The position numbers and the translations under genes are program-made. The notes below the pieces were generated by a model that worked only from the letters and a program-made list of their open reading frames with translations, had not been told where the DNA came from and did not search any database. Positions 13,776-61,093 of a stretch of 64,000 nt of DNA are shown here, one piece after another. This stretch comes from Candidatus Saccharimonadales bacterium (lineage in GTDB: Bacteria; Patescibacteriota; Saccharimonadia; Saccharimonadales; JACQNP01), in contig JBBSJL010000001.1 of assembly GCA_038257245.1 (NCBI GenBank), positions 23,776 to 87,775 on the forward strand, in the 5' to 3' direction. The first letter of the stretch is position 1. Each line of letters opens with the position of its first letter.

Positions 13776-14522
13776 ATGCCTCCAAATACGCCGCAAACGC
13801 CGACGTCTAATCCTGTGGGTGGGATGCCACAAAATCAACAACCGCTGCAAGGTCCGTTGATGTCACCCCCAAAACGGAAGAATAATACACTTCTAGTAGC
13901 CCTCGTTGTCGCTAGTGTATTCTTTATAATTAGTTTAATTTTTGCCATTTGGTCATTTATGGGAATGCAAAAATATAAAAACAACTCCGATGAAATTGTG
14001 GCTGTTGAAGTAGAAAAAACAAAACAAGAAACCGCAACCCAAAAAGATAATGAGTTTCTTGAAAAAGAGAAGACGCCATACAGGAACTACACCAGTTCGG
14101 ATGTTCTGGCTTCTATTAAGTTTGACTATCCTAAAACATGGTCGGCATTTATAGAGGAGGACAAGAATACTAATTCGGGTACCCCTCTTAACGGATATTT
14201 GCATCCTAATTTTGTGCCCGCTGTAGACTCAGGTACCGATTTTGCCTTACGTATAGAAGTAATTAGTCGACCATATAGTGATTCTTTGAAGGAACTTGAA
14301 AGCAAGGTAAAACAAGGGAAGATAAAAATTGCACCATATTCACTAGCGAAAGTCCCAACGGTTTTGGGTGTTAGAGCCAGTGGAGAGATAAATAAAGGAC
14401 AAAACGACACAATGGTCATGCTACCGATAAGAGACAAGACCTTAAAAGTTTATACAGAATCACAACAATTTGTACCTGATCTCGATAAAATTATTTTAGC
14501 TTCTCTGACATTTGTTCCGTAG
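13776..14522 (+). CDS. hypothetical membrane-anchored extracytoplasmic protein
   Basis: 248 aa. P/Q-rich N-terminus, a single TM helix (LLVALVVASVFFIISLIFAIW), then a ~170-aa beta-rich ectodomain. Confidence 0.6.
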   Translation: MPPNTPQTPTSNPVGGMPQNQQPLQGPLMSPPKRKNNTLLVALVVASVFFIISLIFAIWSFMGMQKYKNNSDEIVAVEVEKTKQETATQKDNEFLEKEKTPYRNYTSSDVLASIKFDYPKTWSAFIEEDKNTNSGTPLNGYLHPNFVPAVDSGTDFALRIEVISRPYSDSLKELESKVKQGKIKIAPYSLAKVPTVLGVRASGEINKGQNDTMVMLPIRDKTLKVYTESQQFVPDLDKIILASLTFVP

Positions 14523-14572: not shown

Positions 14573-15265
14573 ATGGTAGCAAATCACAGTTTTGATGATG
14601 GGCGCCTTTTAAGAGCACTAGCGGAACAGCTGAAGTTGCCGTTAATACAGATAGCAAGACTTGCTGAGCTAGGAGTGGGTGACAAAGAATCCATAGAACA
14701 GATTCTCCATACATCAGATATGGCAATTCAATTAATAGACGGGTTGTTACTGAGTAATGATATTCATGCTCAGCAAACGCTAGGGCTCGAACCAGTTTCA
14801 GTTAGTTCCGTACTACTGGCGGCTACTGAAGATCTTCGTCATCATGCTAAAAACTACGGGTGTGAGGTCGAGCTTGATGTAGGTGGCCGATTTGCGCCTG
14901 TTATGGGTAACTTTAGGGCACTAAGAACTGCATTTACAACACTGGGTTATTCAATGATAGAAGCACAAACCCAAGAATTGAATAACAAGATAGTCTTGTC
15001 GGTCCATTTAGGCAATAAGGGTATTGTTGCAGGAGTTTTTGGTGGCAGTAATGAAATTACTAAAGACGCATTTAAACGTGCAAAGGCACTAATGGGTTCA
15101 GCAAAACAGCCGTTTGTGTCAAAGAGCTCATCGTCCGCAGCTGGAATATTTATAGCTGATTCGTTATTTAGTGTTATTGCATCTCAGCTTCAGGTTGCTA
15201 AACATAACAAACTTTCGGGGCTGACTACCACGCTAACTCCTAGCCAACAATTAAAACTGGTCTAA
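14573..15265 (+). CDS. degenerate histidine-kinase-like protein (pseudo-HK, no TM/sensor)
   Basis: 230 aa collinear with DHp+CA domains, but the H-box reads ALAEQLKLPL (no His). The N-box region is GNFRALRTAFTTLGYSMIE and the G-boxes are degenerate (SSSAAGIFIADS). Confidence 0.5.
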   Translation: MVANHSFDDGRLLRALAEQLKLPLIQIARLAELGVGDKESIEQILHTSDMAIQLIDGLLLSNDIHAQQTLGLEPVSVSSVLLAATEDLRHHAKNYGCEVELDVGGRFAPVMGNFRALRTAFTTLGYSMIEAQTQELNNKIVLSVHLGNKGIVAGVFGGSNEITKDAFKRAKALMGSAKQPFVSKSSSSAAGIFIADSLFSVIASQLQVAKHNKLSGLTTTLTPSQQLKLV

Positions 15266-45402: not shown

Positions 45403-46686
45403 CTACAAAGCGATATTATTGGGGCTATTTGGGTCGCTTGATTCGGGAGCCTCAGCGACTGGTGTTTCGGTTGCTGCTGGCTGTTCAGTCGGAGCAGTAG
45501 CAGTTGCGGCGTTGCCATTTATTGTTCCGTCTTCAGAAATATTGATATTTGCAGCTTCAGTTTCTGGGGCGCTTGGTTGTGGAAGATCTACAGCAGGGCC
45601 ACTGTTGGCTTGAGCATTTTTAAGTTCCTCTTGTTGTAATAAGGCATTCAGGTCCGGTCCGGTTGAGTTGAGGTCGTTTATAGGGGTTATTACTTTCTTT
45701 GACGCAGCTGGTGAGTTTTGGTTAGCTACAGGGTTTGGTGCAGGAGTTTCTGGTGTAGTGTCCGTTGTGGTAGGTGTGTGTTCAGGAGCAATGGCTTGGG
45801 GCTGAGCTCCAGTTTCTGTAGCTGGTTTATCGAGTAAATCGTTAACTGCATCAGCTAGTTTTGCAGCATTGTCGGCTGCAGCTGTCGTTGCATCTTGTGG
45901 TTCTTCAGCTACTGCAATCTCTTCTACAGGATCAGGGTTAGTTTCGGGCTCTGGTGGTGACGCTACAGGAGTAGGTGTTGGCTTGGGCTCTTCTGCTGGC
46001 TCAGTTGTCTTGGCGTTCTCTACAAAATTATTTATTTGGTCTTCAATTTTTTTCCCCTGATCTTGACTCGATTCACTCAATTGTTGTTCGTCAGGTTGAT
46101 CGTCGTTAGTTACTGGGTCTGTAGCTGGGGGCTGGGCTGGCTCAGATACAGGAGCAGGCATAGCGGTTACTGATGGGGTGTCTTGTTGATCGGTATCGGT
46201 ACTATCTGAGTTATCGGTTGCAGTCGTGTTAGACTCATCTACCACGGGCTGTGGCATAGGGTCTGGGCTGGCGGCAGGTACAGGATCTGGGCTACCAGTC
46301 TGGGCAGCCGGTGCTGCTTCACCAGAAAGAACTTCCCGGGCAACTGCTGCCACATCTTCAAGTGTAACTTGGGATTTGACCAAGTATCGGTCGGCACCAA
46401 GTTTATCAGCGCGCTCTTTATCTTCGGCCTGTGACAAAGCTGTCATCATAATTATTTTGGTATTCTTGGTTTCTGGGGTTGTGCGAAGAATATCTAGCAT
46501 ATCAAAACCGCTTATCTTAGGCATCATTACATCAGAGATAATAAGATCTGGTTTTTCCTTTACTGCTAATGCTAGCGCCTCTTCACCGTCTTTTGCCGAT
46601 ACAATTTCATAACCTTCTGCGATTAAACGTGCTTCGTAAATTTCTCGTAGATTGTTGTCGTCTTCGACTAACATTATTTTTGACAT
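45403..46686 (-). CDS. response regulator: receiver domain + ~300-aa acidic P/T/A/E-rich low-complexity tail
   Basis: The receiver (VEDDNN, DLIISDVMMP, MMTA, RYLVKS) is ~60 % identical by eye to 7131-7514. The remainder is low-complexity (PDPVPAASPDPMPQP..., TPTPVASPPEPETNPDP...). No output domain recognised. Confidence 0.8.
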   Translation of the reverse strand: MSKIMLVEDDNNLREIYEARLIAEGYEIVSAKDGEEALALAVKEKPDLIISDVMMPKISGFDMLDILRTTPETKNTKIIMMTALSQAEDKERADKLGADRYLVKSQVTLEDVAAVAREVLSGEAAPAAQTGSPDPVPAASPDPMPQPVVDESNTTATDNSDSTDTDQQDTPSVTAMPAPVSEPAQPPATDPVTNDDQPDEQQLSESSQDQGKKIEDQINNFVENAKTTEPAEEPKPTPTPVASPPEPETNPDPVEEIAVAEEPQDATTAAADNAAKLADAVNDLLDKPATETGAQPQAIAPEHTPTTTDTTPETPAPNPVANQNSPAASKKVITPINDLNSTGPDLNALLQQEELKNAQANSGPAVDLPQPSAPETEAANINISEDGTINGNAATATAPTEQPAATETPVAEAPESSDPNSPNNIAL

Positions 46687-46766: not shown

Positions 46767-48497
46767 TTATACATTTAGTTGCGGGTTTGCTGCTTCGGCT
46801 GTTTGCAGCTCCTTAGCCTGTAGTGAACTAATTCTAGGTAGATTGATATAGAATGTGCTTCCCTTGTCGACCTCACTATCCACCCAGATTCTTCCGCCAT
46901 AGATTTGTACGATTTTTTGGCAAATAAATAATCCAAGTCCAGTTCCTCCAACGGTTCGTGTGCTAGAATTATCGACTCGATAAAACTTTTGGAATAGGTG
47001 TGGGACGTCCTCTTTTGGAATGCCTGGGCCAGTGTCACGAATGTAGAACTGTATGACATCGGGGTTTCCAGTTAAGCCGATCGATATCTTGCCATTCTCG
47101 GTGTACTTCACGGCGTTATCGAACAAATTAGTAATAACTTCACGTAATCTATCGGGATCGGCGTAGGTATAGTAAAGCGGTGTAATTACTTTCTTGCCAG
47201 CACTCGCGTCGTTAGATTTGTTGCTTGTACCGATAGTAAACTCGACCAATAGGCCTTTCTTTTCGGCAGTAAACCTAAGCGAGTCAGCGACCTGCTCAAG
47301 GAATACTCCCATATCAATTGCTGCCGGGTGGCTAACTAATCGGCCGTCTTCTGCTTTGGCGCTAGTAAGCAAGTCCTGAAATAATTGCCCTAAGTGTTGT
47401 GTGCTGGAGTGGGCCTTTTCTAGATAACTCCTAGCCTTGACGTCGATATTGCTAACCTTATCATTCAGGGCAAGGGCTAAGTAACCTTCGATGGCTGCTA
47501 CTGGTGTACGCATTTCGTGGCTTGCTGTACTAATAAAATCAGCTCGGCGTTGTTCTTCGGCTTTCGCATTGCTAACATCGCGGATAACTGCAACCGTTCC
47601 AGCAAGTTCATTAGATTTATCAATAATGACTGGAGACACAACAAACGAAACGACGTGAGTTTTTTTGTCTCTGGCAGCAAGATTGTAGGTATTGCTCGTG
47701 GCTTGCCTATGAGCGATTACCATCGAGAAAGGATTAATATTACTAGGTATGTCTTCATCAAGTTCGTTTTTTATATTAACCACGTTATGGACGTTTATCC
47801 CAAGTGCTTCTTCTACGGGCCAGCCTGTTAGAACTGCGGCAGTTGAGTTCATGTTGTTAATATTGCCATCAGTATCGGTCACAATAACACCGTCGGCTAT
47901 AGACTGAATGAGGATCTCGGATTGTAGTTGTTTGTTTTTTAACGCCCCCGACAGTTTAGAAATTTGGGCGTTGGTTTTTAGGTCATAATAACGACGAAAA
48001 ACGAGGTAGCTAAGTATGCCTATGAGATAAGATCCGAAAAGACCTAGCATACTGAGAGTGCTTACTTCAAAAACACCTTCAGAGGAAGTTGACGACAAAA
48101 TAAAGTAAAGCGAAATCACAAAACACATACCGGTGATGGCGTATGTACCAAAAAGGCCACTAAACAAAGCTAGAGCAAGCCAAGAAATCATATAGATTGA
48201 GCTAAATTCGCCAGTCGTGTGTACGAGGCTGAGGATAGTCAAACATTGTAGGAGATAAAGTATTAGGGTTGCCTGCCAGGCATTTGCATGTGCAACCTCT
48301 CTCTTGTATATAAATACAATGTAAACTAGTTGCATTAGTGCAAAGCCGAGGGTCATGTAGGTTAGGGCTGATTCCTGGCTGTCTAAAATGTATTGGGGGG
48401 CAAACTGATTAACTGAGCTCACCAATGCAAGTGCAGCCGCTAAAACTAACGAAACGCGACTATACAAAAGATACCACCGGTCAGAAACAGATTGCAT
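46767..48497 (-). CDS. sensor histidine kinase (multi-TM N-terminus, PAS, HisKA, HATPase_c)
   Basis: 576 aa. ~6 N-terminal TM helices, PAS-like segment (IADGVIVTDTDGNI), H-box STASHEMRTPVAAI, N box NLFDNAVKYT, G boxes DTGPGI / GTGLGL. Confidence 0.9.
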   Translation of the reverse strand: MQSVSDRWYLLYSRVSLVLAAALALVSSVNQFAPQYILDSQESALTYMTLGFALMQLVYIVFIYKREVAHANAWQATLILYLLQCLTILSLVHTTGEFSSIYMISWLALALFSGLFGTYAITGMCFVISLYFILSSTSSEGVFEVSTLSMLGLFGSYLIGILSYLVFRRYYDLKTNAQISKLSGALKNKQLQSEILIQSIADGVIVTDTDGNINNMNSTAAVLTGWPVEEALGINVHNVVNIKNELDEDIPSNINPFSMVIAHRQATSNTYNLAARDKKTHVVSFVVSPVIIDKSNELAGTVAVIRDVSNAKAEEQRRADFISTASHEMRTPVAAIEGYLALALNDKVSNIDVKARSYLEKAHSSTQHLGQLFQDLLTSAKAEDGRLVSHPAAIDMGVFLEQVADSLRFTAEKKGLLVEFTIGTSNKSNDASAGKKVITPLYYTYADPDRLREVITNLFDNAVKYTENGKISIGLTGNPDVIQFYIRDTGPGIPKEDVPHLFQKFYRVDNSSTRTVGGTGLGLFICQKIVQIYGGRIWVDSEVDKGSTFYINLPRISSLQAKELQTAEAANPQLNV

Positions 48498-48613: not shown

Positions 48614-48689
48614 GGTCCCGTCGTCTAGTGGTTAGGATATCTGGTTCTCATCCAGAAGATCGCGGGTTCGAATCCCGCCGGGATCACCA
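48614..48689 (+). tRNA. tRNA-Glu (anticodon CUC), CCA encoded
   Basis: Cloverleaf folded by hand: acceptor GGTCCCG/CGGGATC, D-arm GTCT..AGGA, anticodon stem TCTGG/CCAGA with loop TTCTCAT, T-arm GCGGG-TTCGAAT-CCCGC, then A-CCA. Confidence 0.9.
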
Positions 48690-48700
48690 TGATTGTATAC

Positions 48701-49891
48701 TTAGGCTGCTTTTAATACTTTACCGGGGGTTCGAACAGCTTTGCTGACTATGCTTATGCCTGGTCCTCGGGTGACTTTACCGATTCGTTTTGCGGATATT
48801 CCCTGTTTGGCTGCTTCGTCTTTTAGTCTCTCGCCGTCACTCCCGTCGATTGCTAATATATATCCTTGCCCACCGTGCCATGTGGTGTATGATTCTTCAT
48901 CGCTCATTGGACGAAGAGTTCCGTCTGGGTTTTCTACTTCAGTTATTTCTTGCGCATGCTGTAAAATATCTGGAACTTCGAAGGGGTCGTAAATATGCGC
49001 GCCAAGTTGAGTCGCTTCGAGCATTCTGCCCAGCTTCTCCCAAATTGAGCCACCTGAAACATGTGCAACGCCGTGAATATCAACTTTTTCTTTTACCTCA
49101 ATCTTGTAACCACCAGTCAGAGTTGTCATAAGACCGGAGTAAATAGTGGAAGGAGTGACAGCGAGTTCGCCAAGTGTAGTATCTTTGAACTTCTCAGTTT
49201 CCCACCGGTTTCCGTAGACTTTTTCAAACGTCTTACGTATTCGCGAAATACCATTACATCTTGCACTTATAGGTTCAGCAAATCCCCAAAGCTCATCGTT
49301 TTCCTGGACACGCTCTCCGGTAATCATTCGGTCTTGGTGTACTAAGCCAACCGCATCACCAATCCAGTCCACAGAGAAATCTCTTCTTCCCTGTAGTCTA
49401 GCTCCATGAACAGCGATTTCGCCAGTAAACAATACCGCTTTTGCATCATTTGCGCCTTCAGCAAGACCTTGGAAAAGTTGGTCAATGTAATGCAGATAGT
49501 CATCGCCAGGTTCGCCCAAAGTACTCACGATGAGAGCGTTATTGATAAACACGGTCTGCCCGCCCTCAACCGGGTTGTCGTCTGCCGCCATTGCAACCAA
49601 ATCTTTACCTAGCCCAAAAAAGTTACCGTTTCCTTCATAAAAGTCGGGTTTCGTGCCTGTTCCATCAATACCTGACGTCCCGTAAACATCTGGACGGTTT
49701 CTTATTTCGTCAAAATTTAGATACTTTGATGCAGAAAAGCGAGTGTCAAATGAAATTGGTTCGCCGAATTCACCTGCCCTGTTTGCCCAAGTTGTTTGAC
49801 ACCAGTCCGCGGCTATTTGTGAGGCTGCATTACTTAAACCTAAGTCAACTCCAGCCTGTCTGTAGGCTTCCATTCTGTCTAACTCTGCCAT
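48701..49891 (-). CDS. purM: AIR synthase (PurM)-family protein, divergent and extended (396 aa)
   Basis: Collinear with E. coli PurM: YRQAGVDL, GIDGTGTK, DLVAMAADD, GLAEGA...TGEIA, HVSGGSIWEKL. Confidence 0.75.
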   Translation of the reverse strand: MAELDRMEAYRQAGVDLGLSNAASQIAADWCQTTWANRAGEFGEPISFDTRFSASKYLNFDEIRNRPDVYGTSGIDGTGTKPDFYEGNGNFFGLGKDLVAMAADDNPVEGGQTVFINNALIVSTLGEPGDDYLHYIDQLFQGLAEGANDAKAVLFTGEIAVHGARLQGRRDFSVDWIGDAVGLVHQDRMITGERVQENDELWGFAEPISARCNGISRIRKTFEKVYGNRWETEKFKDTTLGELAVTPSTIYSGLMTTLTGGYKIEVKEKVDIHGVAHVSGGSIWEKLGRMLEATQLGAHIYDPFEVPDILQHAQEITEVENPDGTLRPMSDEESYTTWHGGQGYILAIDGSDGERLKDEAAKQGISAKRIGKVTRGPGISIVSKAVRTPGKVLKAA

Positions 49892-50697
49892 TACATCTCC
49901 TTTGCGTAGTTAACCGCACCTTGAATTATTTTCGCTGCAAAATCCTCTGCAAATATAGTCTCAGGACGACGCCAGTTTGGATGATGCTCGCGTCGAGTAA
50001 AGCGTTCGTCGTGGGGCATCATCCCAAAAACAATCTCATTCGGACTGCAAGTCCCTGCGATGCCAAGTGGCGAACCGTTCGGGTTATCAGGATGTTCTTC
50101 GGTAGGGTTGCCGTTGCTGTCACAGTAGCGTAGAACTACCTGCTTGCTCAGAACTAGTTCGGCGTAATCGTTCGGATCACGGGCTACTATACGACCTTCA
50201 GCATGGGCTACCGGAAGCTCGATGATACGACCAACATCTTCCTTTGGAATAAAAGGACAAACCGTATCTTCAACACGTGCCTTAACCCAGCGACACTCAA
50301 ATTTCATATTCGCATTACGATCAAGTGTAAATGTAGGCTTGTCATCAGGATCAATGCGCCCATGTTGCAAAAGACCAGATTCGAGAAGGATTTGGTTACC
50401 ATTACAGTTACCTAATACTGGTTTTCTAGCTTCAACAAAAGCGTTTAGCTGATCGGCAACAATGGATGTTCTCATATCGCTGGCGGCTATCGCACCGGCA
50501 CGAATGATATCACCGTAGCTGAACCCGCCGGGCACGAACAGACCTTGCAAGTTATCAATCCTAACTTCGCCACTCTTTACGTCGGCAATGTGAACGAATT
50601 GTGCTGCTGCTCCTGCCTGGTTTAGCGTATCGAAAGTTTCCGCCTCACAGTTGATTCCTGGGAATAGTAGGACTCCAAATTCTGGACTTCTGCTCAT
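49891..50697 (-). CDS. purQ: FGAM synthase glutaminase subunit (PurQ)
   Basis: FGVLLFPGINCEAET, VPGGFSYGD, catalytic Cys context LGNCNGNQIL, C-terminal HPNW. ATG 50697 overlaps the purL TGA (ATGA). The stop overlaps the purM ATG. Confidence 0.8.
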   Translation of the reverse strand: MSRSPEFGVLLFPGINCEAETFDTLNQAGAAAQFVHIADVKSGEVRIDNLQGLFVPGGFSYGDIIRAGAIAASDMRTSIVADQLNAFVEARKPVLGNCNGNQILLESGLLQHGRIDPDDKPTFTLDRNANMKFECRWVKARVEDTVCPFIPKEDVGRIIELPVAHAEGRIVARDPNDYAELVLSKQVVLRYCDSNGNPTEEHPDNPNGSPLGIAGTCSPNEIVFGMMPHDERFTRREHHPNWRRPETIFAEDFAAKIIQGAVNYAKEM

Positions 50698-53540
50698 GCT
50701 AGGGCCTCTTGATTTGTTGCTTTCCACACTTGTTTTAGTTCATCGACCGAGTCACTGAACAGTTGCCCTGTGCCTTCCTGTTCAATGTACAGGAACTTGT
50801 CTGGTTGAGTCGTACCAATGACTTGGTGAGGTATATTACCGAGGAGCTCTGCAATATGCGCATCTGCAGGAACTTCGATCACAAGCGCAGGCGTCTCGTT
50901 AAAGAGTACTCGCTCTAGTGGTGAATTGCCGTCGAAGTTTAGCGTAGCACCGCAGTCACCCCCGAACAGCATTTTACTAACGGTGGTTGCTAGTCCGCCC
51001 TTGCCAACAACACCACACGATAGTACGTGTTGTGGCCGAATAACTTCGTGCATATGGGTATAAAATTCCATATCGCTCATGCCATGATCAGCTCTGGGTA
51101 CTTTAGCACTGGAACCGTCGTAAATATCGTACAGAATTGAACCGCCCATTGCATCAAGGTCCTGTTGCCCCACTAATACAAGTGTAGAATCAGTGCGCTT
51201 TATATCAGTGCTCGTGGTTTCTTTGATATCGTTAGTAAACGTAACACCGCCTAGGCCGAGGTAATAAGGGTTCTTGATCACATTGCCTTTTTCATCAGTG
51301 TGTTCGCCAGAACAGCTATCCTTGCCTGTAAACGGTGCAGTTCCCATGCCGTCCAATTTATCTAGAAGAGTATCAACCGAAAGAAGTAATGTTCCCATAA
51401 CTTGTTCATTTGGGCGCGGTGAGATGTAGTTGTTGTTACCTTTTACTTGCCTTGGGTCGCCACCAACAGCCACGATGCGTCCGAACAAGTCATCGACCAC
51501 CCACTCAGTTCCACGGATAGGATCTAGATCTGTTAGTGCCGGATGAGCACTTTGCGCAAATACTATTCCACCGTCTTGACCCAGTATAGGTGCCAGCACT
51601 GTCGCATAGTTTGGACTATCCATGTGGATACCAGTGAACGGCTTCAGTACATTCATGCCTTGTACTTCATGATCGAACTGGCGAATAGCCGGTTCTGTTG
51701 AAGAAATATCATCATGAGCTAGCACTCGTCGCAACGCATCAACATAGTTGCTGACTTCAATCGAACGCTCCTCAACTTCAGGAGGTACATAGTTGGCTAC
51801 ATACTCTAATGGAGGCAGCGCGTTTTTGATAAAATCGTATTCCCAATCAGAAACAACATCGTCTCCTGATGTGATTGTATAGCGAGGACAATCGCCGCCG
51901 TTTCCAAATACACCAATTGCAGTAGCTTCAGAATCGTGTTTTGCAAATATGGCTATCACAGCCTCAACATGCTCAGGTGCAACGGCTAGTACAGCACGTT
52001 CCTGAGATTCACTTATGATTTTATAATCAACCTCAAAATCAGCTGCCTTGAGCGGCAACTTATCTGCGTCCCAAATAACACCTATCTCATTACCGAGTTC
52101 GCCTGCGGCTAATCCAACACCACCTGCTCCACAATCTGTTCCTGCCCGAATGTAGCCCAGTCGGGAAGCTTCTAAGACAGCGTCTATCATCTTCTCTTCT
52201 TCATATGCCCCCGGTTTTTGGACCTCGCTGGTGTCAGCAAGAGTCTCTGTGTTCGATGCGGCGGAAGACCCTGTCGCTCCACCGACACCATCCATGCCAG
52301 TACGTCCTCCAATAACGAACAGCACATCACCTGCTACGGGAGATTCCTCTGTTGATCTTCCGACTTCACCGAGCCCTATAGAAATACCCTTGAACATAGG
52401 TTTAGCTGAGTAGCCTTGATGGTGATGTACTGCAATATCAACCGTTCCAACACCAATGCGATTACCATACTTACTAACTGCACTTACGGCGCGCCGAAAT
52501 ATTTGTAGTGGCGTTTGTAGTCCTCGAGGTAGCTGTTCTTTTTTGAGCTCGAGTGCGCCGATACCTAAACTAACGACAGTTGCAATGGGCTTGAAACCCT
52601 TTCCGGTCATTAGAATGTCACGGATCAGACCACCAACACCAGTAGCAACACCGCCCTCCGCTTCGATCAATGTTGGATGGTTATGAGTCTCACCCTTAAT
52701 ATTAACGGCAAGCTGTTTCCCGTCTTTATAGAACGGTGTTCGAAATACTGCAGAGTTGCCATCAAATGCCTGTTCAACTCCCTGCTGTTCGTAGTGTTTC
52801 TTTGCTCGATCCTTAATCCTGCCAAACAACGAACGAGCCTTCTCTCCATTCACAATTAGATCAGCACCAAATGTTTCATGCCGGCAATGATCACTCCAGA
52901 ACGGACCCATTAGGCGTAGACCAGCCTCGGGGCTTATTCCGCCAGTTTTATGGCTTTCACGCTGGAGGGCTTGCATCTTTACGAGAGACAGACCGTATTT
53001 TCTAGAATCTGACAGCTGCATTAGCTCGTTATCAGTCATCATACTAAGATTGATTTGCTCGGTTGGTTTTGCTCTGGACTCTGGAGTCAAGCTACGAGGA
53101 GCTTGCTCACGAACTTCTTGGATTTCCTTATTAACAAGCTGCTCTTTCACTACTCGACCTATTGATTCAATCGGTGTGTCTGGACTAAATCGTACTTCAG
53201 TTCCGAGTGCTAAATTGGTAACAGGTATTCCTAGTCGTTTTGCAGCTGTTCGAATGGGCTCAATGTCAGAGTTGATCATTCCTTCGCGGTCAGTGATTTC
53301 TACCCTAAGAGGATCGTCCCAGTCTTCACGAGGCCCAACTACTACTTGTTGTGTTACTGGATTTGCCAGTAATCTCTCCCCGAGCTGCAAAGCCTGATCT
53401 TCGCTAATGCCCTCGGCATAGTAGACGTCTGCAGTTGCAGGTGCAGCGACTGTACAGATTTCTGCTGCTTCACGTGCAATTTGTTGACCCCTAACATCGT
53501 CACCGATGTTTTCAACCCGAATCTCAAGAATATCAGCCAT
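50694..53540 (-). CDS. purL: FGAM synthase synthetase subunit (PurL) with two N-terminal PurS-like repeats
   Basis: 948 aa. The PurL core starts around aa 175 (WSDHCRHETF, two PurM-like ATP-grasp halves with GGLIRD / DCGAGG). The first ~170 aa carry two PurS-like units (..ERLLANPVTQQ; ..EQLVNKEIQE). Confidence 0.8.
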   Translation of the reverse strand: MADILEIRVENIGDDVRGQQIAREAAEICTVAAPATADVYYAEGISEDQALQLGERLLANPVTQQVVVGPREDWDDPLRVEITDREGMINSDIEPIRTAAKRLGIPVTNLALGTEVRFSPDTPIESIGRVVKEQLVNKEIQEVREQAPRSLTPESRAKPTEQINLSMMTDNELMQLSDSRKYGLSLVKMQALQRESHKTGGISPEAGLRLMGPFWSDHCRHETFGADLIVNGEKARSLFGRIKDRAKKHYEQQGVEQAFDGNSAVFRTPFYKDGKQLAVNIKGETHNHPTLIEAEGGVATGVGGLIRDILMTGKGFKPIATVVSLGIGALELKKEQLPRGLQTPLQIFRRAVSAVSKYGNRIGVGTVDIAVHHHQGYSAKPMFKGISIGLGEVGRSTEESPVAGDVLFVIGGRTGMDGVGGATGSSAASNTETLADTSEVQKPGAYEEEKMIDAVLEASRLGYIRAGTDCGAGGVGLAAGELGNEIGVIWDADKLPLKAADFEVDYKIISESQERAVLAVAPEHVEAVIAIFAKHDSEATAIGVFGNGGDCPRYTITSGDDVVSDWEYDFIKNALPPLEYVANYVPPEVEERSIEVSNYVDALRRVLAHDDISSTEPAIRQFDHEVQGMNVLKPFTGIHMDSPNYATVLAPILGQDGGIVFAQSAHPALTDLDPIRGTEWVVDDLFGRIVAVGGDPRQVKGNNNYISPRPNEQVMGTLLLSVDTLLDKLDGMGTAPFTGKDSCSGEHTDEKGNVIKNPYYLGLGGVTFTNDIKETTSTDIKRTDSTLVLVGQQDLDAMGGSILYDIYDGSSAKVPRADHGMSDMEFYTHMHEVIRPQHVLSCGVVGKGGLATTVSKMLFGGDCGATLNFDGNSPLERVLFNETPALVIEVPADAHIAELLGNIPHQVIGTTQPDKFLYIEQEGTGQLFSDSVDELKQVWKATNQEALA

Positions 53541-54234
53541 TTACTTCCCCTAATGCTTTATGTATCCAGGTTGGTACCCAAAGTTTCTCCACTCGCATTA
53601 CTTCATTTTTTAATTTATTAACTGTACCGAATTGTTCCCATTCCTGTTGCATTTCTGGAGATACTGTTACTGGTTGATGCCCAATCGAGGCGCCTGTATC
53701 GTATGCGGGTAAGCCATTTTTATCTAATCTCGTATCCATCCAGTGGAACGTGGGGCCGGAATGTTCAAGACCTAGCTGCATAACCTGTTCTTGTACACCA
53801 GTACCGTGAAAGCCCTGAGTTTCTGGTAATGGCCCAGGATGGGTGTTAGCTATCGGGACTTCTTCTAACACTTTCCCGATTATTTTTTTCATAAAGCCCA
53901 ATGCTACAAATATGCTAACGCCATACTCATCTGCAAGTTGGACTAATTTTTCACTTGCTTCGTAGCTAATGGTTCCCTCTACTTCATTTCCATCAATTTC
54001 TGGCAGAGTACAGGCCTTCTCTGTTTTGTTAGATATGTGATGTATTGGTATATCTAGTCTGTCTGCTCTCTCCCATACTCCTGCATTTGAGCTGTTTGGA
54101 CCATTGTTGCATGCGACGAAGGCTATTGTTGTATTTGGTAGCTCGTTTGCACCTATAGCGTCTTGGACTGCCTCGAAGGTACTGCCCCCTCCTGATGCTA
54201 ATACGCCAATTCTAAATTCTGGATTATCGGTCAC
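53533..54234 (-). CDS. purN: GAR transformylase (PurN)-like formyltransferase
   Basis: GTG start after GAGGT. IGVLASGGGSTFEAV, catalytic N/H in IANTHPGPLP, Asp in MDTRLDKNG. ~40-aa C-terminal extension. Confidence 0.7.
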   Translation of the reverse strand: MTDNPEFRIGVLASGGGSTFEAVQDAIGANELPNTTIAFVACNNGPNSSNAGVWERADRLDIPIHHISNKTEKACTLPEIDGNEVEGTISYEASEKLVQLADEYGVSIFVALGFMKKIIGKVLEEVPIANTHPGPLPETQGFHGTGVQEQVMQLGLEHSGPTFHWMDTRLDKNGLPAYDTGASIGHQPVTVSPEMQQEWEQFGTVNKLKNEVMRVEKLWVPTWIHKALGEVNG

Positions 54235-59782: not shown

Positions 59783-61093
59783 GTGATCCCTAGTGCCTCT
59801 ACAGAATATAGTGATTCCATCGTTAAGTACCATCAATATAAACACGAACTTGGAATTACAAATACCGAAGCAAAATCACATCCGGATACGCAAGAAGTAT
59901 TTTTCGAATTAATCGGAGTTGTCGAAGAATATCCTGAATTGATTTTGGCATATACTGGGGTACAAAGATGTAGGGGCAATAATAGGCGTGAAGCGATAGA
60001 AAACGTAAGAGAAATTGAGGATACAATCCTAGACTTATCATTAGACGTTGGGATAATTTCTAGTTTAGAACACTCAAAAAGAAGTATGTCATTGGATGAT
60101 AACGGAATCAAAGATATATCTAAACAGTTCGTTAAGTTGTTTAAGGATATTATCCCACCAGAATTACTGCCCAAAAAACCAGCAAAGAGGAAAAGGATAA
60201 AAAATAATCAAATTGCAAGTTCAATTGAAGCTGTTGATGAGGATATGGATGTCGTGCTGATCGATGGCAATAAGTTAATTTTCAATAATATTGAAGACGT
60301 CGATCCAACAGATACTCAAACAGAGCTACCTACCCCCACAAATGGCATCAAAAACCCATTTGACTATAATACGGATAGTGCGGCGAATAGCCTAGCTGTT
60401 CAAGTTAGAAATCTGGATACTGCCGAAAAGGCTTTGGCTGGCTATATAGTGTTTGGACGCTTGACGGCTGGAATCAACTTAACGGTTTATTCACTTCAAA
60501 GGGTCATGAGAACATTAGTTGGTACGGATGAAATGCTCACAGTGCGTGGGGCAACCAAGAGATTTGAGATGTGTAATGATTTTATTCTGGGCAAACACGG
60601 CAAAGGTACTACTATTGCAAGGTCGAGTAATAGAGACCAGATTTTAAGTGATATTGGGCCTTCGTTCTCGCATCCTCAAGCGGCCTGCAGTACTGGCAGA
60701 AATGATAACGATATAGCGGCAAGACTAGAATGGTGGTTCCCTGGTAGGGGTGAATCAACTAGCTTACAGAAAATTAAGTGTTTCGGTTGTTCCGCCATAG
60801 ACGCATGTCTTGAATTTTCAATTGCCCATCCTCAGAAGTTTGGTATTTGGGGGGGTGCAAGCGAAAGAGAGCGCCGAGCGCTTAGAGGCACAATGAAAAA
60901 AAGTGGGCGCGCTAGTTTCGAGAGTAGGGTCGTTACTTATAGGAAAAGATCGGCCGAGAGACTTATGTCATTTATTGAAGTACATGCAGATGAAGAAGAC
61001 AAACCAGACCTAGAGTTTAATTTGTTAAGATTTCTCGACCCAGACTATAGGTATAAATTTGATACTTTAGATAAATTCGTAACAACGGAATAA
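59783..61093 (+). CDS. 436-aa protein with C-terminal WhiB-like (Wbl) Fe-S cluster domain
   Basis: GTG start after GGAGA. The C-terminal AACSTG-x-WWFPGRGE-x-KCFGCSAIDACLEFSIAHPQKFGIWGGASERERRAL gives a C-x30-C-x2-C-x5-C pattern plus G[IV]WGG and a basic tail. The N-terminal ~300 aa are unassigned. Confidence 0.75.
   Translation: MIPSASTEYSDSIVKYHQYKHELGITNTEAKSHPDTQEVFFELIGVVEEYPELILAYTGVQRCRGNNRREAIENVREIEDTILDLSLDVGIISSLEHSKRSMSLDDNGIKDISKQFVKLFKDIIPPELLPKKPAKRKRIKNNQIASSIEAVDEDMDVVLIDGNKLIFNNIEDVDPTDTQTELPTPTNGIKNPFDYNTDSAANSLAVQVRNLDTAEKALAGYIVFGRLTAGINLTVYSLQRVMRTLVGTDEMLTVRGATKRFEMCNDFILGKHGKGTTIARSSNRDQILSDIGPSFSHPQAACSTGRNDNDIAARLEWWFPGRGESTSLQKIKCFGCSAIDACLEFSIAHPQKFGIWGGASERERRALRGTMKKSGRASFESRVVTYRKRSAERLMSFIEVHADEEDKPDLEFNLLRFLDPDYRYKFDTLDKFVTTE

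Follow-up and report, generated by a model that had tools for sequence, protein, structure and literature searches.

Does a Saccharibacteria chromosome that carries genes for steps 3-5 of de novo purine synthesis retain these steps alone, or do they belong to a pathway spread over the genome? This question is raised by a 64,000-nucleotide (nt) stretch of contig JBBSJL010000001.1 from a Candidatus Saccharimonadales bacterium (the whole stretch is called the window below), in which purN, purL, purQ, and purM follow one another on the minus strand. We found these genes to be a real, tightly coupled purine-synthesis operon on the chromosome of a member of the Saccharibacteria. The reading that we consider probable is that of a translationally coupled chromosomal purN-purSL-purQ-purM operon of the Saccharimonadia, acting in steps 3-5 and belonging to a known kind, in which two operon lineages, here called A and B, are combined. 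The operon consists of the following features, where GAR is glycinamide ribonucleotide, AIR is aminoimidazole ribonucleotide, and CPR is the candidate phyla radiation.

53533..54234, minus strand: purN-like GAR transformylase, 233 amino acids (aa), GTG start, lineage A
50694..53540, minus strand: purL of the PurSL/mdPurL type, 948 aa, made up of an N-terminal PurS-like double repeat, a linker, and an FGAM-synthetase core, lineage B
53106..53540, minus strand: PurL residues 1-145, two PurS-like β-α-β-α-β repeats, the equivalent of the large-PurL N-domain
49891..50697, minus strand: purQ, glutaminase subunit, 268 aa from the ATG at 50697, lineage B
48701..49891, minus strand: purM-like AIR synthetase, 396 aa, lineage A, a CPR-type PurM variant

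An earlier note on this DNA had described four minus-strand genes linked by overlaps, and the open reading frame (ORF) list and the junction sequences agree with it. The purN and purL genes overlap by 8 nt with the shared sequence ATGGCTGA, purL and purQ by 4 nt (ATGA), and purQ and purM by 1 nt (TAATG). The GTG start of purN is preceded by GAGG, and the purQ ATG at 50697 agrees with the public gene call. When the region was scanned for promoters and terminators, 7 promoter-like sites were obtained compared to 12.3 expected, and the sole other yield was a weak hairpin with a T-run after umuC, between umuC and purN (54293-54276).

Proteins were assigned to families with Pfam and NCBIfam profiles, using the curated equivalog cut-offs, and by sequence searches against solved structures; the families recovered are those named in the earlier note. 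PurQ scored 203.9 bits with TIGR01737, above the cut-off of 177.8, and 213.8 bits with GATase_5, and its motifs GNCNGNQ and MPHDER, read from the translation, supply the Cys-His-Glu triad. PurL, PurM, and PurN matched the correct equivalog models over their full length, and PurL and PurM each contain the Pfam domains AIRS and AIRS_C. The NCBIfam matches of the four proteins were solely to the PurN, PurL/FGAM synthase, PurQ, and PurM families (FGAM, formylglycinamidine ribonucleotide), with no NCBIfam match to ThiL, HypE, SelD, Fmt, or PurU, and the solved structures matched were only FGAM synthetases, AIR synthetases, and GAR transformylases. The PurL motifs SDHCRHETF, KGETHNHPT, and GVATGVGGLIRD are conserved and align with those of solved PurL structures. 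All window proteins tested were singletons at 90 % identity in a collection of 15 billion proteins.

The best matches of PurN among solved structures are all GAR transformylases, and its Pfam Formyl_trans_N score was 49.6 bits (cut-off 26.1). The triad Asn130/His132/Asp179 is invariant in an alignment with A-type and B-type relatives and with what we take to be the E. coli PurN sequence, where these residues correspond to N106, H108, and D144; the solved-structure alignments show the same triad motifs. The extra length of PurN, previously thought to be a C-terminal extension, is instead due to internal insertions, and the C terminus aligns with that of canonical PurN. At E<=1e-30, only 5 relatives of PurN were found among 1.84 billion representatives. 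For PurM, the best solved-structure match was the PurM structure 2z01, aligned over residues 8-382, and the top matches were all PurM; compared to these structures the 396-aa protein has several internal insertions, as had been proposed. The A-type PurM keeps DGTGTK and AHVSGGS (signatures DGxGTK and AHITGGG). From these assignments, PurN is predicted to formylate GAR; PurSL, with two fused PurS-like repeats in place of the free PurS dimer, would act with PurQ to convert formylglycinamide ribonucleotide (FGAR) to FGAM; and PurM would cyclise FGAM to AIR. The enzymatic activities of all four proteins are thus predictions from sequence, and by all such criteria the operon would be functional.

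The one new point is that the operon is a mosaic, in which purN and purM belong to lineage A and purSL-purQ to the diverged lineage B. The comparators were loci of relatives, L011 and L014 (assembly GCA_036787835.1) for lineage A and L001 (GCA_964602865.1), L003, and L005-L007 for lineage B. PurN is 65.5 % identical to that of L011 and approximately 30 % to B-type PurN, and PurM is 67-68 % identical to those of L011/L014 and at most 26 % to B. The reverse was found for PurL, with 38 % identity to A and 53-61 % to B, and for PurQ, with 40-42 % to A and 55-61 % to B. In neighbor-joining trees with 100 bootstraps, PurL and PurQ were placed in B and PurN and PurM in A, with a support of 100/100 each. 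Identity in 50-residue sliding windows was uniform along each gene, which locates the breakpoints at the purN/purL and purQ/purM junctions. As PurL and PurQ are partners in a single enzyme complex, it is plausible that they were replaced together, and purSL-purQ probably moved as a unit. The B version of purSL-purQ was found in L001 and in a few further contigs of Saccharibacteria, and 7 close cluster relatives of the window PurL were listed among 8,000 scored candidates. The one relative returned by a scan of genome contigs, L008, proved to be the L001 contig again, and a metagenome scan, dominated by large-PurL genes, returned only distant PurSL loci (L016-L024) among the matches listed.

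We then considered the N terminus of PurL, for which two PurS-like repeats and a separate glutaminase had been claimed. An AlphaFold2 model of residues 1-170 (mean pLDDT, the predicted local distance difference test score, 86) contains two β-α-β-α-β units, and the PurS-PurS description is therefore right as a predicted fold. No sequence-level repeat was detected between the two halves of the N-domain (E 1.5), and the Pfam PurS match of the N terminus is marginal. The glutaminase is indeed separate, as PurL ends at residue 948 without a GATase_5 domain and purQ lies adjacent and overlapping. What did not hold is the view of the fusion as something unusual, since this is the mdPurL/PurSL architecture, found in more than 120 clusters across CPR phyla. 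These clusters make up the family of the A-type L011 PurSL, with members in Daviesbacteria, Levybacteria, Nomurabacteria, and Saccharimonadales, many of which have a Pfam PurS match and the JGI name "subunit PurSL". The mdPurL of methanogenic archaea likewise has approximately 200 extra N-terminal residues, with the purS gene absent and purQ separate (Brown et al. 2011, PMC3261824). The mdPurL/PurSL plus PurQ architecture is therefore typical of CPR bacteria and some archaea and is not new.

The window protein shares with this type a length of ~940-950 aa, a core resembling small PurL, an N-terminal domain of ~170-200 aa in place of free PurS, the absence of a glutaminase domain, and purQ as the next gene; it differs as a strongly diverged offshoot, 36-40 % identical to Saccharibacteria PurSL, and in scoring below the NCBIfam PurL cut-off. 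The A and B forms of PurL are nonetheless mutually closest, at these same values, compared to large PurL, to which identity is 25-30 % and from which the window differs by its unfused glutaminase (Salmonella 1t3t; human PFAS 9n9w). Like the PurS2-smPurL-PurQ complex of Gram-positives and Thermotoga (PDB 3d54, 3viu), the window has a stand-alone PurQ passing TIGR01737, and its PurL core is nearest to small PurL (142 bits with 3viu; TIGR01736 is the best NCBIfam match), but it is without a separate PurS gene and carries the two PurS-like repeats fused to PurL. Among metagenome loci, more PurSL-type genes were seen in L016-L019 (33-51 % identical to the L011 PurSL) and L072 (26 %), with a separate purQ after them in L017-L019 and L072; the L016 cluster carries a PurM of the canonical type. 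The separation of PurSL and PurQ is thus widespread.

The surroundings of the operon were compared with the corresponding loci of its relatives. Four neighboring features serve as reference points:

48614..48689, plus strand: tRNA-Glu(CTC), found by ARAGORN, the sole tRNA in the window; convergent, 11 nt from the purM stop
46767..48497, minus strand: PAS/HisKA histidine kinase, downstream synteny anchor outside the operon; identity of 53-59 % to the kinases located after tRNA-Glu in L011/L001
54292-55572, minus strand: umuC; NF002955 UmuC 376.6 bits; Pfam IMS, IMS_C, DUF4113; 54 % identical to L001
55573-55932, minus strand: umuD; Pfam Peptidase_S24; 49 % identical to L001

The umuC and umuD genes are the upstream neighbors of the pur operon and a synteny anchor. 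In L001, a Saccharibacteria metagenome-assembled genome (MAG), the order is gltX ... HK-RR-umuD-umuC-[AAA_28]-purN-purL-purQ-purM (HK, histidine kinase; RR, response regulator), continuing as HAD-AAA_28-purE-purK-purC-purB-purO-tRNA-Glu-PAS kinase. In L011 it is HK-RR-...-DinB-like polymerase-purK-purE-purN-purL-purQ-purM, then tRNA-Glu-PAS kinase-RR-rluB-der-pth-dprA-topA. In all three genomes the pur cluster is therefore separated from the PAS kinase by a tRNA-Glu gene, and these tRNA genes are nearly identical; the close abutment that the earlier note had observed, with 11 nt between the purM stop and the 3' end of the convergent tRNA, is conserved synteny, and the umuC ... tRNA-Glu, PAS kinase locus would be ancestral. 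Compared to these relatives, the window is without purK-purE upstream and without the ~6-kb HAD...purO block downstream, and so carries a pared-down form of a purine pathway whose retention is patchy. In L014, purL-Q-M occupies another site, flanked by homologues of the window ORFs 13776-14522 and 14573-15265, which are neighbors of each other in the window; the cassette has thus moved at some time. At other B-type loci the module is linked with purB (L007) or guaB (L003).

Other features of these loci were also recorded. The spacer between purM and tRNA-Glu is 96 nt in L011 (11204-11299), with a hairpin and then a T-run, and 11 nt without a terminator in the window (48690-48700), so pur transcription in the window would run antisense into the tRNA-Glu gene. 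The L001 pur cluster (L001:13669-21079) includes an archaeal-type IMP cyclohydrolase (PurO, PF07826; IMP, inosine monophosphate), two AAA_28 kinase-like genes, and a HAD hydrolase, with no recognisable transformylase for aminoimidazole carboxamide ribonucleotide (AICAR); its purM is split into ORFs of 316 and 77 aa, which could be due to a frameshift or an assembly error. Directly upstream of purL in L014, a 62-aa ORF (L014:6176-6364) is 59 % identical to window PurN residues 182-227 and looks like a truncated remnant of the purN C terminus; short PurN C-terminal fragments (62-84 aa) were also seen in P0301, P0305, and P0331 among the representatives from the PurN search. L011 carries a DinB-like polymerase (28 % identical) and an SRAP-domain gene (L011:1594-3775) where the window and L001 have umuD-umuC, and gene exchange at this umuC/DinB-pur hotspot is not limited to the pur genes.

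Several points weigh against the reading of a chromosomal mosaic operon for purine steps 3-5. Three of the four proteins fell below their equivalog cut-offs, i.e., PurL with 339.3 bits for TIGR01736 (cut-off 525.75), PurM with 107.8 bits for TIGR00878 (cut-off 236.35, with model positions 2-331 of 332 aligned), and PurN with 59.3 bits for TIGR00639 (cut-off 150.1); PurL also did not reach the NF002290 cut-off (313.8 bits versus 648). Two signature positions of the PurM superfamily are altered in the A-type PurM, GAxP to GGQT and HSNG to RCNG. The trees behind the mosaic are all neighbor-joining trees, and the direction of the exchange is not fixed, as either LQ entered an A operon or N and M entered a B operon. 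The question of the rest of the genome was judged from the 64-kb window, part of a contig of 124,484 nt, which is without the purE/purK present at the locus in both syntenic relatives, and no purF, purD, or AICAR transformylase gene was found in any ~20-kb locus of the relatives. As to the scores, no other family matched PurL, and its low score is attributed to divergence; PurL, PurM, and PurN appear to be genuinely divergent members of their families. The PurM changes, together with GGETA to TGEIA, are common to other CPR PurM-like proteins, including P0157. The longest contig is 33,218 nt for both P0157 and the PurSL protein P0239, and the two may lie on one contig.

According to one alternative, the genome encodes only the segment from GAR to AIR, working on a host-derived intermediate or feeding AIR to the ThiC route to the thiamine pyrimidine. 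Within the window, the claim of GAR to AIR only was confirmed, with no purF/D/E/K/C/B/H detected by Pfam scans of its ~46 ORFs and nothing found when the relatives' PurE/K/C/B/O and IMPDH were compared to the window by tblastn. Beyond the window it did not carry over to the syntenic relatives, which have purK-purE (L011) or purE-K-C-B-O (L001) at the locus. Smaller sets do persist, such as purL-Q-M with the 62-aa purN remnant in L014, and the A-type PurM is an orphan in 3 of 6 contexts (L012, L096, and L097), with no pur neighbor within 10 kb; most Saccharibacteria are without nucleotide synthesis, and purifying selection acts on all four genes of the window. The lone PurM proteins are 52-65 % identical to that of the window (L012:10001-11179, also L013; L096:2213-3388; L097:6842-8020); the one in L012 (genome ERZ650289) lies inside a ribosomal-protein operon, between L15 and SecY, and the one in L097 (GCA_028286405.1) has a Ham1/ITPase-like gene on one side and a NUDIX gene on the other. 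On the other hand, GAR and its riboside have no known transporter or kinase and none was seen here, and there is no thiC in the window. In relatives the module stands in a purine context, beside purE/K/C/B/O, purB, or guaB, and their pur genes are split between two or more loci, so that little can be concluded from what a 64-kb stretch does not contain. A genome restricted to GAR to AIR is thus possible but not likely, and we infer, by a slight balance, that the remaining pur genes lie elsewhere in the genome rather than being absent.

The published surveys give some background to this balance. Saccharibacteria are mostly without nucleotide synthesis, one study found complete IMP modules in 32 % of CPR MAGs, and a near-complete IMP pathway has been described in Ca. 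Lutisaccharimonas and in some Saccharimonadia (bioRxiv 10.64898/2026.09.16.751625); neither PMC7786006 nor the Lutisaccharimonas preprint itemises in its supplements the pur genes that are present. The Patescibacteria pur clusters, including those of Ca. Lutisaccharimonas, are like the window in phylum-level group, in enzyme types, and in their patchy occurrence in Saccharimonadia, and the window differs in showing four pathway genes with two lineages mixed. That a GAR-to-AIR segment kept by itself under purifying selection, together with orphan PurM, signifies a use outside a complete pathway is doubtful; if true, such uses might be the processing of a purine intermediate from the actinobacterial host or a second function of PurM.

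Another possibility is that the pathway is being lost and that the operon is its decaying, non-functional remnant. Gene loss does occur in relatives, as in the purN remnant of L014 and the purM of L001 split into 316 + 77 aa. In the window, however, four intact ORFs keep their start/stop overlaps and catalytic motifs, and comparison with the nearest relatives gave nonsynonymous divergence (pN) of 0.20-0.27 with saturated synonymous divergence (pS) and pN/pS of 0.26-0.33. The pN range equals that of der, pth, dprA, and gltX, which indicates that the pur genes are maintained by selection at a housekeeping level rather than decaying. We rejected the pseudogene reading on these grounds and regard decay as very unlikely.

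It is similarly improbable that the four proteins are non-purine paralogues, i.e., other formyltransferases or enzymes of the PurM superfamily. Scores below the equivalog cut-offs, the altered PurM motifs, and the orphan PurM copies would fit such a reading, and two relatives are named just 'AIR synthase-related protein' by NCBI. Yet the profiles reassigned none of the proteins to a non-purine family, the outcome by which the earlier note would have given up its interpretation; the best solved-structure matches are all purine enzymes, and gene order and neighbors in relatives are those of purine clusters.

The composition of the operon bears on a recent origin from outside. Its genes have a GC content of 43.6-47.7 % compared to 40.6 +/- 2.5 % elsewhere in the window, values that replace the earlier spot counts; the excess is confined to codon positions 1 and 2, and GC at the third position (GC3), 0.35-0.41, is within the background of 0.354 +/- 0.04. 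No second copy of the tRNA-Glu 3' end was found in the window, no att-like or flanking repeats around the operon, no integrase domain among neighboring ORFs in Pfam scans, and no relative in a scan of viral contigs. Despite the adjoining tRNA, the total GC above background, and the different site in L014, a recent genomic island integrated beside tRNA-Glu, the gene that had been suspected as an insertion point, is barely credible and largely refuted by normal GC3, the missing att and integrase, and the order pur cluster/tRNA-Glu/PAS kinase common to L001 and L011.

The remainder of the window is a housekeeping chromosome, with genes for a release factor, ftsEX, pyrG, xseA, recO, aminoacyl-tRNA synthetases, def, rsmH-ftsI-mraY-ftsW-murG, topA, dprA, pth, der, two two-component systems, and gltX. 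The closest relatives are labelled Candidatus Saccharibacteria or Saccharimonadales, as expected from the initial guess of a CPR genome. The 436-aa product of the plus-strand gene at 59783-61093 contains a WhiB domain in its C-terminal part, at residues 300-367; this is a typically actinobacterial domain, and Saccharibacteria usually have Actinobacteria as hosts. The response regulator at 45403-46686 on the minus strand has a receiver domain 95 % identical to that of L011 over 121 residues, while its other ~300 residues form a low-complexity tail rich in Pro/Thr/Ala/Glu that is almost wholly diverged; this gene has the top GC1 and GC2 of the window.

No new enzyme or mechanism is revealed by the locus. 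It matters mainly for annotation, because the divergent PurN, PurL, and PurM fall under standard cut-offs, and two points are of moderate interest, namely the A/B mosaic and the graded extent to which Saccharibacteria have kept pur genes. The former offers an example of module-level replacement in an operon of overlapping genes, the PurSL-PurQ pair being exchanged, presumably in one move, while the flanking purN and purM were kept. As to the latter, the usual account of Saccharibacteria is that they cannot make nucleotides, and the loci compared here differ in how many purine genes they retain: counted within ~10 kb of the module, L001 has nine, L011 six, the window four, and L014 three plus a remnant, and L012, L096, and L097 have PurM alone. 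These findings bear on the evolution of metabolic dependence in episymbionts.

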